A stretch of DNA of 64,000 nucleotides from Heterodontus francisci (taxonomy: Eukaryota): contig NC_090395.1 of assembly GCF_036365525.1 (NCBI RefSeq), forward strand, positions 65,497,326 to 65,561,325, written 5' to 3'. Of this stretch, positions 6,350 to 59,060 are shown one piece after another. The translations under genes were made by a program, and so were the position numbers. The first letter of the stretch is position 1; the number at the start of each line of letters is the position of its first letter. The notes beneath the pieces are model-generated. The model saw only the letters and a program-made list of their open reading frames with translations, searched no databases and was not told the origin of the DNA.

Positions 6350-6667
6350 CTAACAAGTAACGTTGGCATAAATTGCCATTCCAGATTTCTGAGCAGCACC
6401 AAGTGATGGAGTTTCTTGATTGTCCTTTGGGGGCCGGCTTTGAATGTTGAAACCACTGTAGATGACACTGTCCTCATTGTTAACTGACCGCTTTGCCACC
6501 TCACCCCTCCTTGCTGATGATTTCTTTTGAAATTGCACTGCTGCATATGTGATTCCATTTTCATCATTATTCAACTGGGCCGCTCCCTCACTATGTGTTT
6601 CTGCTGAGCCACTTCGATTGTGGTTTACACTTGCGTATAGAATGGTCTCTTCCACTGCTGCCAATTG
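6350..6667 (-). CDS. Receptor gene A exon 7: ITIM-bearing cytoplasmic tail
   Basis: Long polypyrimidine tract + tag acceptor; QLAAVEETILYASV..ITYAAV..VIYSGF..AIYANVTC*; the 7 exons sum to 1254 nt (417 aa + stop). Confidence 0.9.
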   Translation of the reverse strand, partial: QLAAVEETILYASVNHNRSGSAETHSEGAAQLNNDENGITYAAVQFQKKSSARRGEVAKRSVNNEDSVIYSGFNIQSRPPKDNQETPSLGAAQKSGMAIYANVTC

Positions 6668-7527
6668 CTAAAATAAAAAAAAAATGAGATCTGATTTATT
6701 TCCAATTAACTTGAATGGTAATTTATGCTGTTATGAGGAGAAATATATTTCTCAATTATTATAAATCAGTTTACAAAGTATAACAAAGTATTAAAAATTA
6801 TTTACAGCACAGAAGAGTCAATTCAGACCAATTGGTCGGTGACAGTGTTATTCTCCTCACCAGCCTCCTCCCACCCCTCCCCACTTATCCTTCATCCTTT
6901 TTTCCTTCATGTGCTTATCTAGCTTTCCCATATATGCAACAAAGCTATTTGATTCAACCACTCCCTATGGAAGGAATGGGGAATTCAGGAGAAACTTCTG
7001 TACCCAGGGAATGGTCAGAATGTGGAACTTACTACCAAAGGGAGTAGTTGAGACAAATACCATAAATCCATTCATGGAGAAGCCACACCACCAGCTTTGT
7101 GCTGAGTTGTAACCACTAGAACTTTACAATACCTCAACAAGATCAAGACGACAAACACCCAGGTCTACAGCTTTAATAAGACTTTCCTCCTGAGAAGATT
7201 CAACAGGTTTATGGCTACCCACGAACATTTACCTCATGTTGGACTTTAAGCTATATCCTCCTCTTTTCTCTCTATCTATCTATTCCTGTTTATGTGCGTG
7301 TAGGTGAATGTGTGAGGTTGTGACCATTTCGGGAATTGTGGAGAAAGGAAATAGTTTTTTTTTAACCTATGTGAAAACCTGTCGTTTTTCTGTTTATTTG
7401 ACCAGAAAAACACTCAGAGGCAAACTCACCATTTCAACAAAACACAACTGCGTTCAGTTGGAAGATGAACAATGAGAACTCCCTTCCATCTGTCGGCAAC
7501 AAGAGAACTCATATTTTATATCCTTAC

Positions 7528-7580
7528 CTGATTATCATTAAGAGTCTTGTCTCTTCCATGACATATAATGCAGTTTGTAT
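7528..7580 (-). CDS. Receptor gene A exon 6: membrane-proximal cytoplasmic
   Basis: DTNCIICHGRDKTLNDNQ; acceptor ttttttcag, donor CAG|GTAAGG; 53 nt, phase 1-0, bridges exons 5 and 7 in frame. Confidence 0.8.
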
Positions 7581-8114
7581 CTGAAAAAATTACAATATTA
7601 CTGTTGAAAGAGCTGTAACAGAAATTGTTAATATGTTTGAAAGGTCTAAATTGAGTGTGTGTTGCAGCGTTCATATTCTTACATTGATCTCCATTTATGT
7701 GAACTTCATCTGCATTGCACTCATGATTCCCAACATAGAGTGAAAAATTGCTCTGGTTATTACACATCATATTCAGAAAGAGTGGAGGTAATTTTCACCC
7801 TCACTGTCTGATGGACCAGATCACCTGCCTGTTGGAGGACCCACCTGATATTCATCCCCCTGACGAGGCGCTCTGTCAGATTATTGCTCAAGACTTGAAG
7901 GTGAAAATTAACTTTCATGTGTTTAGGGTTTTGTGACAGAAAGTCCAATCAATTCTATCCGGAAAATGACCTCCTGATCTATAGTGCTATCATTGGGAGG
8001 TCAAACAATTCATCACAGGGAGAAATCAGATGCGAGCCTGATTTTGATTCACTCAAATCCTATTCACTAACACAAAGTTAAAATGGGGCCTACTTAGTGT
8101 CTGTGGACACCACT

Positions 8115-56348: not shown

Positions 56349-58320
56349 TGTAAAGAGTTCTTTTTATGTTGTCTGATGCAACTTAAATGAGATGCGTGGA
56401 GTCTAGTTGGTTTTAGATCTCAAACAGATTTATTAGCAGCTAACAAGTATGTATATTGCAGAGCTATCTATTTACAGAACCTGCCTCTAGGTGTTCCAGT
56501 TACAGAGTGACTCTAGCTTTGAGTCACATGACTGCATTTTGGCACTTGGCTCATTAGCAGACTAAGATCTTCAAGAGCCATCATTCTTAAAGGCAAACAT
56601 GCAATATCCCCCTTCTGTCCAAAGATAAATCTCGTATGCTAAAAGTAAAAGCACATAAAATTAGATAACATCAAAATTATTCACACGTGGATAGAGGTTG
56701 TGAAATTTACAAACAGAGGCTCAAAACTCCATATATTTTCTCGGTGGTTTGACAACTCTTGCTCAGGGAATTTGCATCTCATCTGTTGCTGTTCTTTCTG
56801 AAGTTTCTCCTTCTCATTCATTCTTTTCTGTTACTCTGCCTTCACCCTGCTAAAATACTCTGTTGCTTTCCTCAGGATGACCACTTTTGAGGCCCTGTCA
56901 TTCTTGGAAAGTTCCGGCACCTCATCTCGAAGAGCCAACAGACAATGTTTCAACTCATTCCTCCTCTGTCTCTTCAGGACGTTGCTTGTCCTTCGCCTCT
57001 GCTCATACTCCGCATCGGAAGGCTTGGGGCTCAAGGTTGAGGACTTGGTGGGGTAAGAGTATTTGGCTATCTGTCTGTTCTGTGTCATAGTGATGCTGGC
57101 AGTTCGCTAAAGAGCAGAAGTGAAGGCGCGGCATCGTTGTGCTGTTGATGGGTTTCCAGACTGCACCATTTGATTCTGGCCAGAGTCTCCGAGCGGGTTT
57201 CGGTCCTTGGGGATTTCCTCTTGGCAATGCTCTCGTGGATAGCTATGATGTTAAGGTCTTTACATGCTGGTAGCCCCACCACTACTGGTCCGCTCAAGTC
57301 TACAAGGTAGAATGTTTGTGGTTTCCATGCTGACTTACCATAGCTGCATTGTATTGTCAGTGTGCCACTGCAAGGGATGGGTGACCCGCTGTATGCAGAT
57401 AACTGGGCAGTTGTCGGTTGTATTATTGATTTCCAATGACTCCAGTACATATCTTTGAGGATTCTGACTTGTAGGATATTTGCACTAGCACCTGTGTCAA
57501 TCTTGACCCTGAGTGTGTGTTTGCCAGCTTTCTTTGGGCACAGGATGTTAATGATAGCAAAAGCTTCCAGTTGTTGGGCTTCATCAACATAATGTGTCAG
57601 GTTCACAATGTGGAACCCCTGCTATCCTTTTGGCTGAGAATTGCTTCCCTCTGGGTCTCATCTCAGGTTTTTGCTGTGGAATTTGTGTATCGGCTTGTGT
57701 TTACGCCAATCTCTGCACCTCTCATTGCTGCTGTTGCTCTATTTCTGTGCCCTCCTGTGACTTCGGGCTGCATCTTCGGAGCCAGATTTCTTGCATCGGT
57801 GGGCCCAGTGTCCTTTGCACTGCACAGGTGTTGAAATGCAGGACAACTTCACAGTGAGTGGAAGCAGCCACACTTACTACACAGTTTGCTTGCTTTTTCC
57901 GACCTAGTTATTGTACCGATACCGTTGGCTGCATTTACTGCTTGCAGGTGCTGTTGTCCAGCTACGAGGTCTTGGTATTTCTTGCCATCTTCCAGCAGTG
58001 CATCGATGCTGTGGACTTTCTTTTCCCCCAAAAATTCCTTTTGAAATGCTTCAATGGGTGTTGATACAATCACCAGCTCCATTATTCAGCCTGACAGCTC
58101 AGCTTCGGAAAAATTGCAGTGTTTGCCCTTACTACAGCATCTACTGACAAACTGGTCTATTGATTCCTGCAGGGGGGGTGGGGGGGGAGGGAGGGGTGGC
58201 TGTTGCCTGCAGGACGTCAATTCCAGATGGTGAATTTGAAAATTCACATTTAATCTGAGCTGATCTTCTCGCATTTTCCATATCTTTGCAAGGTCGGGCA
58301 TCAGAAGCAAGAGTACAACC
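56349..58320 (-). mobile_element. 5'-truncated Gypsy-type LTR retrotransposon (gag-pro, pol replaced by myc fragment, PPT, LTR)
   Basis: gag (RQQP..ESIDQFVSR; CSKCG..H..CPAF zinc knuckle), protease VKIDTGASANIL, pol C-terminal remnant ARVVKPPRKYMEF* at 56721-56762, PPT AGAAGGGGGA at 56607-56616, LTR 56349-56606. Confidence 0.8.
56765..57225 (-). pseudogene. MYC-family fragment (box IV + bHLH-leucine zipper), disrupted
   Basis: KWCSLETHQQHNDAAPS (cf. HQQHNYAAP), then [65 protein letters not shown]; frameshift near 57088, stop at 56831. Confidence 0.9.
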
Positions 58321-58736
58321 AATCTCTGCTGTCAGCTAACGCAAGTGATCCCAACTTACCTGATCAAAACATCTAACACTTCAGAATACCTCCAGCAGAT
58401 CACTTAACCTCTGATCTTATGCTTCTCTCCTCACAGCTAAAACCTCTCATCCTGGGTTTTGTATTAGATCAACTCTTCCACACTCTATCCCTGACATTCT
58501 TCCTAAACCAGAATACAACAGTTGGACTTTGCAGTTCGCAATATCATCTGCTAGAAATAGGCTTATTTGTTTATAATGACTCAGTCAATGAAATTCCATT
58601 TTAATTTCATGGAATAACTGGAGTTTCACACGTTTTGGGAATATTTCTCAGAGTGACTGAAGGAATTTAATCAGTTTAGATAGACATTCATTAAAAAAAT
58701 TAATTAACCATATTATTCTTCTAAAGTATCACTTAC

Positions 58737-59060
58737 CAATGCTGCTGATTTGTGTCACATAACTGCAGCTCTTCCTCGATATGTCGAAGACTGACACATT
58801 AACCATTTCACTGGATTTTTTCCCCTGATTATTCGAGGCTGTGCAATAATATTGATGATGTTGCTGTGTGAAGGATTGACAATGTAGATCCAGTTTATTG
58901 GTGTCAGCGATCTTTGAATCTTCAGACGGGGTCTTTTCATACCATGTGTACTGAATGGGAAGAGATCCCCGAACAGACTCACAGGAGATGGACACTGAGC
59001 CCCCAAAACATGAGACATTTGGTGGTGATAAAAATCTCAGTACAGGAACAAACACAGATT
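58737..59060 (-). CDS. Receptor gene B: C2-type Ig exon (paralog of gene A exon 3)
   Basis: 324 nt, same phases, acceptor tttcccacag, donor G|GTAAGT; 28 nt differences from the gene A exon by hand count. Confidence 0.92.

Follow-up and report, generated by a model that had tools for sequence, protein, structure and literature searches.

The stretch analysed here, called the window, comprises 64,000 nucleotides of the 6.0-Gb genome of the shark Heterodontus francisci (contig C25, positions 65,497,326-65,561,325); positions outside 1-64000 are given in continued window numbering. It covers two adjacent receptor genes on the minus strand, gene A and gene B, both of which encode V- and C2-type immunoglobulin domains. 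Gene A ends in an uncharged transmembrane segment (TM) and a tail with inhibitory motifs of the immunoreceptor tyrosine-based type (ITIMs), gene B in a TM that carries an arginine and is followed by hardly any tail. Genes A and B are new shark members of the MDIR family (modular domain immune-type receptors), known from skate and described in 2006.

Structure and family membership of genes A and B

Gene A is made up of seven exons (Table 1). All introns have GT-AG ends and matching phases, and the assembled reading frame encodes 417 amino acids with zero internal stops. The tail contains four tyrosines, two of which lie inside strict ITIMs ([ILVS]xYxx[ILV]); at least two such motifs were found in 134 of 20,000 shuffles of the tail. 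A preliminary description of this stretch had reported the neutral TM together with the ITIMs ILYASV and ITYAAV, and these are present at the minus-strand sites it gave (6643 and 6553). Judged by this analysis, gene A is likely an inhibitory receptor.

For gene B, 287 amino acids were assembled from leader, V, C2, stalk and TM exons that are open and bordered by canonical splice sites. Its V exon and a probable leader, as well as more cluster genes, came to light beyond the window, where the preliminary description had proposed to look for them. The TM motif IIWNVIRW begins at 52152 on the minus strand and the protein ends 18 residues after the arginine. The stop described almost immediately after this TM is real, but the exon continues to a donor site and a leftover terminal exon follows. 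In three paralogs the codon in question reads AGA (Arg). The leftover exon is 92-97% identical to paralogous exons, and its first codon, which is TCA in two paralogs, is another stop. Since the paralogs read AGA and the leftover tail exon persists at 49677, the stop of gene B is a derived, gene-specific nonsense codon by which the ancestral tail was lost.

Table 1 Exons of genes A and B (window numbering; rows marked with an asterisk lie outside the window).
Gene	Feature	Position	Strand
A	Leader exon, ATG, phase-1 donor	40781..40817	-
A	CD300/pIgR-like Ig exon of V type with four Cys	38749..39060	-
A	C2-type Ig exon	34537..34860	-
A	Ser/Thr-rich stalk exon	23917..24037	-
A	Uncharged TM exon	15035..15123	-
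A	First cytoplasmic exon	7528..7580	-
A	Terminal exon with ITIMs ILYASV (6643-6626) and ITYAAV (6553-6536), two other Tyr motifs and the stop codon	6350..6667	-
B	Probable leader (assignment inferred)*	99015-98979	-
B	V exon (locus L001)*	69714-69400	-
B	C2-type Ig exon; top PDB sequence match FCRL5	58737..59060	-
B	Stalk exon	53426..53531	-
B	MDIR5-type TM exon with Arg codon (52134-52132), TGA nonsense codon (52077-52075) and donor (52066)	52066..52156	-
B	Leftover terminal exon, now 3' untranslated region; first codon = second stop; AATAAA ~145 nt past exon start	49630..49677	-

Contigs from two sequencing runs, X3 (of the same or a related organism) and X4, cover parts of gene B; that they represent RNA is only a guess. 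In run X3, 52066 and 49677 are connected in one contig, the ends being GT-AG; a second contig reaches from the end of C2 to the TM exon with unknown letters in between, and a contig matches the 3' untranslated region (UTR) of gene B in 466 of 468 letters. The proposed junction from 53426 to 52156 has GT-AG ends and stays in frame, but the exact joint is absent from the 15 of 114 joints that were listed. A transcript running gene B into an ITIM tail was likewise not seen among these 15. In run X4, a contig connects the end of the C2 exon (58737-59061) with about 53950 (53504-53950), a point that lies upstream of the stalk acceptor. The aligned edge shows no AG and the frame meets a stop ahead of the TM, so that gene B may have a soluble form.

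A profile search returned 137 hits. Skate MDIR2, MDIR3 and MDIR5 are among the 120 listed, all of which come from cartilaginous fish. In blastp comparisons, gene A is identical to MDIR2 (P0131) at 196 of 428 positions over the whole length (46%, E 1e-123), and gene B shares 55-61% identity in the ectodomain as well as the type of TM and tail with MDIR5 (P0113). In a tree of 23 rows without mammalian outgroups, the V domains of the V+C2 genes fall into one branch with those of MDIR2, MDIR3, MDIR5 and a chimaera protein (support 96/92). The closest solved relatives of the V domain are pIgR domains and CD300lf, and that of the C2 exon is FCRL5. Membership in the MDIR family is thus based on homology of ectodomain, TM and tail, on arrays of CD300/pIgR/TREM-like V and C2 domains, on a multigene organisation with inhibitory and activating-type forms and on the grouping of the V domains. 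The shark paired-receptor cluster of MDIR type that had been proposed is borne out, with gene A being MDIR2-like and gene B MDIR5-like. In the original MDIR paper, MDIR1 reportedly has a charged TM, MDIR2 and MDIR3 carry ITIMs and MDIR4 and MDIR5 lack signalling motifs. The genes themselves are ordinary in that the family and its activating/inhibitory design are known in skate, where a passage in PMC3031540 describes MDIRs as multigenic activating and inhibitory receptors resembling CD300, TREM, FCAR and pIgR, and in that relatives are already annotated as pIgR-like or CMRF35-like. Many database models among homologs P0001-P0088 fuse neighbouring genes across an Arg-type TM (for example P0004, P0006, P0009 and P0036), which makes the annotation of the MDIR cluster in other sharks unreliable.

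Organisation and divergence of the cluster

Between 65.24 and 65.89 Mb we identified 21 V and 15 C2 matches, two of the latter being halves of one broken exon. One paralog of the cluster agrees at 100% with the Heterodontus francisci protein P0066 over its listed exons. Exon mapping resolved nine V+C2 genes, each of them built of one to three V-C2 units. The TM is of the Arg type in five of these genes, and the other four combine a neutral TM with an ITIM-type tyrosine tail. Three of the nine (258869-369920) are inverted relative to the remainder. In three places among the V+C2 genes, B-A being one, the gene right after an Arg-TM gene is an ITIM gene. Stops or frameshifts damage 3 of 12 V and 3 of 14 C2 exons among those extracted, and a 13th V exon is split. 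The cluster evolves by birth and death. The region downstream of gene A (-73234 to -261404) contains a further nine V exons, which are divergent, together with three TM exons of the Arg type and three ITIM-like tails; its first gene with an Arg-type TM lacks a tail, like whale shark P0044.

A scan of 40 of 1738 open reading frames in the flanks placed an AMP deaminase at one end of the cluster and two G-alpha genes at the opposite end; judging by their termini, we take these genes to be AMPD2, GNAI3 and GNAT2. IL10 and SARG are found on the same contig, about 6-7 Mb away. Introns within the window are filled with long reverse-transcriptase/endonuclease-like frames (9819-14015, 17450-19300, 27300-30300 and 62635-63885), presumably typical of long interspersed nuclear elements, and an intron of a paralog holds a copy with 96% identity to that at 9500-14014.

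The C2 domains of genes A and B had been called near-identical, a description that does not hold: they share 89 of 107 amino acids (83%) and 296 of 324 nucleotides, and the V domains 77 of 103 amino acids. At the DNA level, 12 recent paralogous C2 exons are 88.5-93.3% identical to that of gene B, the exon of gene A among them with 91.4%, and a thirteenth reaches 63.8%. Because other recent C2 copies are equally similar to that of gene B, genes A and B are, by sequence comparison, adjacent paralogs and no specially matched pair. Gene conversion as the cause of a special A-B pairing was considered and rejected: DNA trees built from 12 V and 14 C2 exons are for the most part unresolved and show no grouping of A with B. 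Positive selection on the V domain was not shown for five chosen exons of each type (dN/dS 0.89, 0.59-1.34, for V versus 0.50, 0.29-0.79, for C2).

A tree of the ectodomains (last V+C2 unit) of 28 chosen proteins mostly groups activating and inhibitory forms by species. Its starred branches force at least nine changes of label, and monophyly of the activating forms is rejected (approximately unbiased test, p-AU 7e-8). Since the two forms group by species and an activating clade is rejected, this tree indicates that ectodomain exons have been exchanged or re-duplicated within species and that both signalling ends predate the split of sharks and rays.

The transmembrane arginine and the putative adaptor of gene B

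The TM of gene B had been described as an NxxR type. A matrix scan of 149 homologs in which the Arg column and the column at position -3 were masked identified, with a clean gap in score (59 versus 27 for the next), 55 TMs in 53 homologs, which are related and partly redundant proteins spanning sharks, skates and rays and do not represent 55 independent events. All 55 contain the arginine, all 55 have tryptophan as the next residue, and substitution by lysine was not found in any of them. Position -3 is occupied by Lys in 23, Asp in 13, Ser in 7, Asn in 6 and other residues in 6, and the described motif therefore stands with respect to its arginine but not its asparagine. Among the Arg-type TM exons of the cluster, the arginine is present in seven of eight, the exception belonging to a broken gene. 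The AlphaFold model of a catshark relative (P0148, mean pLDDT 73) places Arg267 inside a TM helix formed by residues 259-286. Proteins most commonly end 37 residues after the arginine; 33 of the 53 homologs end after 25-50 residues and eight after at most 24, the remaining 12 being longer or fused models. As the arginine is invariant in a scan that masked its own column, the reading of gene B as an activating receptor is strengthened. The invariance of the MDIR5-type arginine across sharks and rays should be useful to comparative immunology.

Tryptophan is near-invariant at both -4 and +1 of the arginine, and this arrangement, often with Lys or Asp at -3, fits the edge of a membrane. The arginine might thus be an interface anchor between two tryptophans in MDIR5-type proteins that use no adaptor with an immunoreceptor tyrosine-based activation motif (ITAM). 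We consider this improbable, given that lysine never replaces the arginine, that tails are short and that Arg-type genes alternate with ITIM genes; taken together, these three features match activating paired receptors.

Decay has to be weighed as well. With two stops in its tail region and damaged V and C2 exons elsewhere in the cluster, gene B could be in decay or be a decoy that does not signal, with other paralogs as the working activators; activating paired receptors are often lost, an example given in a passage of PMC12447643 being CD300C. Of the five Arg-type TM exons that belong to V+C2 genes, three stop directly after the TM, including one whose gene is broken, and this repeated loss of a short tail fits a dispensable tail but fits decay as well. 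As a general rule, stops less than 50 nucleotides before the last junction escape decay of the transcript, and the first stop of gene B, located 9 nucleotides before it, should do so as well. Moreover, the exons from leader to TM have stayed open with intact splice sites, the X3 contig (RNA by guess) matches the 3' UTR almost perfectly, and 8 of 53 Arg-TM homologs likewise end within about five residues of the TM, albeit in predicted models. Gene B being a decaying or decoy copy therefore appears quite unlikely.

According to a passage in PMC13107469, an arginine in the upper TM binds the aspartate pair of zeta-zeta or FcR-gamma dimers and a central lysine goes with DxxxT-type modules; TCR-alpha is assigned there to zeta-zeta, CD89 to FcR-gamma and, by assumption, NKp30 and NKp46 to zeta or zeta-gamma. 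NKp30 is also listed with zeta homodimers or zeta-gamma in part of PMC7226588. In the genome, Pfam family PF11628 has one match among 59 candidates, which is CD3-zeta with its TM aspartate kept. This identity comes from the names of homologs: 13 of 14 hits are CD3-zeta-type (some names partly cut), one is unnamed and none is called FcR-gamma. The search for FcR-gamma consisted of a loose first look, a homolog search of 19 candidates and two exact patterns. The strict pattern for a zeta/gamma-type TM matched the CD3-zeta exon and one chance hit on contig C18, equal to the control rate. A looser pattern gave 43 matches, namely CD3-zeta, 18 that were inspected and rejected and 24 left uninspected, the majority of which have one repeat-like word in common; among the rejected matches, those on C43 are a tandem repeat, and for another 16 the sequence has no continuation as a TM. 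By Pfam, protein and DNA-pattern searches, CD3-zeta alone was found and an FcR-gamma gene was not. A Pfam search for DAP10 gave two weak matches, read as chance; DAP12 was not searched. Separately, an ITAM-like terminal exon was noted on contig C3 (122403303-122403353, L072; Atlas score 0.79), ending a few residues past its second tyrosine motif. No matching TM exon was seen in the 120 kb upstream of it, and of its three representative hits the one read is unrelated.

The preliminary description had gene B couple to FcR-gamma, and these searches do not support it. A passage in PMC4016189 also reports no FcR-gamma in sharks, on 2014 assemblies and in a study that missed the pIgR-like genes discussed here. 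On sequence grounds FcR-gamma is likely absent from this genome, though its absence is unproven. Gene B could nevertheless couple to a shark FcR-gamma chain that was missed or is lacking from the assembly: it carries N-x-x-R, a motif that promotes association with FcR-gamma in mammals and Xenopus and recurs in TMs of the unrelated families LRC, FCRL and SLAM (passages in PMC2413239, PMC4536121 and PMC6557307, where sharks are unmentioned), and the ITAM-like exon on C3 could belong to such a chain. The failure to find a second zeta/gamma-type TM exon in the genome, the lack of any FcR-gamma name among the 14 homolog hits, the 2014 report and the empty region upstream of the C3 exon make this unlikely, if less so than an anchoring role or decay. 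Such coupling would not be new for a CD300-type receptor, since CD300c already signals through FcR-gamma (in a passage of PMC12447643).

As CD3-zeta alone was found and no FcR-gamma gene, zeta is the better guess for the adaptor. We hypothesize that genes A and B are shark MDIRs of which A, with its two ITIMs, likely inhibits, and that the tail-less Arg-TM receptor B likely activates via an adaptor dimer with an aspartate pair, most likely CD3-zeta (probability about 0.6 for this reading as a whole). By analogy with known receptors, binding of a ligand by the V domain would cluster the receptors. The ITIMs of gene A would become phosphorylated and recruit SHP-1/2; the arginine of gene B would assemble with the two aspartates of a zeta dimer, whose ITAMs would signal through Syk/ZAP-70 and render the tail of B itself unnecessary. 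For the identity of the adaptor of gene B considered by itself, zeta ranks first at somewhat below even odds, an FcR-gamma chain undetected here is a rather unlikely second and another adaptor or none at all comes third. The wider proposal that the shark MDIR cluster activates mainly through MDIR5-type receptors, which signal via CD3-zeta homodimers because sharks lack FcR-gamma, is tentative, possible rather than probable.

Three points weigh against our hypothesis. The search for FcR-gamma was not exhaustive, and an assembly can lack a small gene. Kinship of the TM of gene B with those of LILRA and GPVI is unproven, because its relatives have Asn at -3 in only 6 of 55 cases and Lys in 23. 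Finally, the two nonsense changes, the stops after three of five TMs and the many broken paralogous exons may mean that gene B is decaying.

Should signalling through zeta apply, Arg-coupled innate receptors would predate FcR-gamma, and T-cell and innate receptors would share zeta as their ancestral adaptor. With CD3-zeta as the sole adaptor found, innate activation without FcR-gamma in cartilaginous fish is directly testable. Neither the invariance of the arginine, nor a zeta-only adaptor, nor the location of the cluster on the SARG-IL10 chromosome was found in print, in literature that included neither the first MDIR publication nor the bulk of the subscription journals.

Comparison with known receptor systems

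Receptors with an NxxR TM (LILRA, GPVI, OSCAR, CD89, NKp46 and Xenopus XFL) resemble the Arg-type shark genes in the arginine near the N-terminus of the TM and the short tail, with gene B carrying a literal N-x-x-R. The shark genes differ from them by their V+C2 ectodomain, by the unconserved asparagine and by the fact that FcR-gamma was not found in the genome.

V domains of the cluster match those of pIgR, FCMR and FCAMR, specifically pIgR domains, and databases call the relatives "pIgR-like". Genes A and B do not show the five-V architecture of pIgR, a tandem V-only receptor encoded at the IL10-SARG locus, and the cluster is some 6 Mb away from the SARG-IL10 interval. In that interval a separate V exon stands alone. 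This pIgR-D1/CD300-like exon (C25:59153271-59153564; L140:3271-3564, plus strand) has SARG (58.49 Mb) on one side and IL10 (59.32 Mb) on the other and lacks the first conserved cysteine; a possible TM exon with an internal lysine follows about 21 kb downstream. The interval presumably corresponds to the tetrapod PIGR/FCMR/FCAMR position, and the lone exon could be a relative of these three genes in the shark. The presence of the cluster on the SARG-IL10 chromosome bears on the origin of pIgR/CD300-type genes.

Mammalian CD300 proteins (CD300lf, CD300a/c) provide the best single-domain match for the V domain in sequence and fold (about 40% identity and a root-mean-square deviation of 2.1-2.2 Å for relative P0148), share the second cysteine pair and also occur as paired inhibitory and activating forms. 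The shark genes differ in the added C2 domain, in an arginine high in the TM in place of glutamate or lysine and in their flanking genes. The ectodomain of CD300 is a single V domain, and the human locus is flanked by RAB37 and GPRC5C. The term "CD300-like" used in the preliminary description is therefore apt for the V fold but neither for the genomic position between AMP deaminase and G-alpha genes nor for an ectodomain of V plus C2.

The closest counterparts are found in the skate Rostroraja eglanteria. MDIR2 and MDIR3 (P0131 and P0104) have, like gene A, the order leader, V, C2, stalk, neutral TM and tyrosine tail and share its V branch, but MDIR3 contains more domains and the shark gene has two strict ITIMs. 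MDIR5 shares with gene B the W-x-V-x-R-W type of TM and a short tail homologous to that of gene B. It differs in having two V+C2 units, Lys instead of Asn at position -3 and a tail of about 19 residues that is kept, whereas that of gene B was lost by nonsense mutation.

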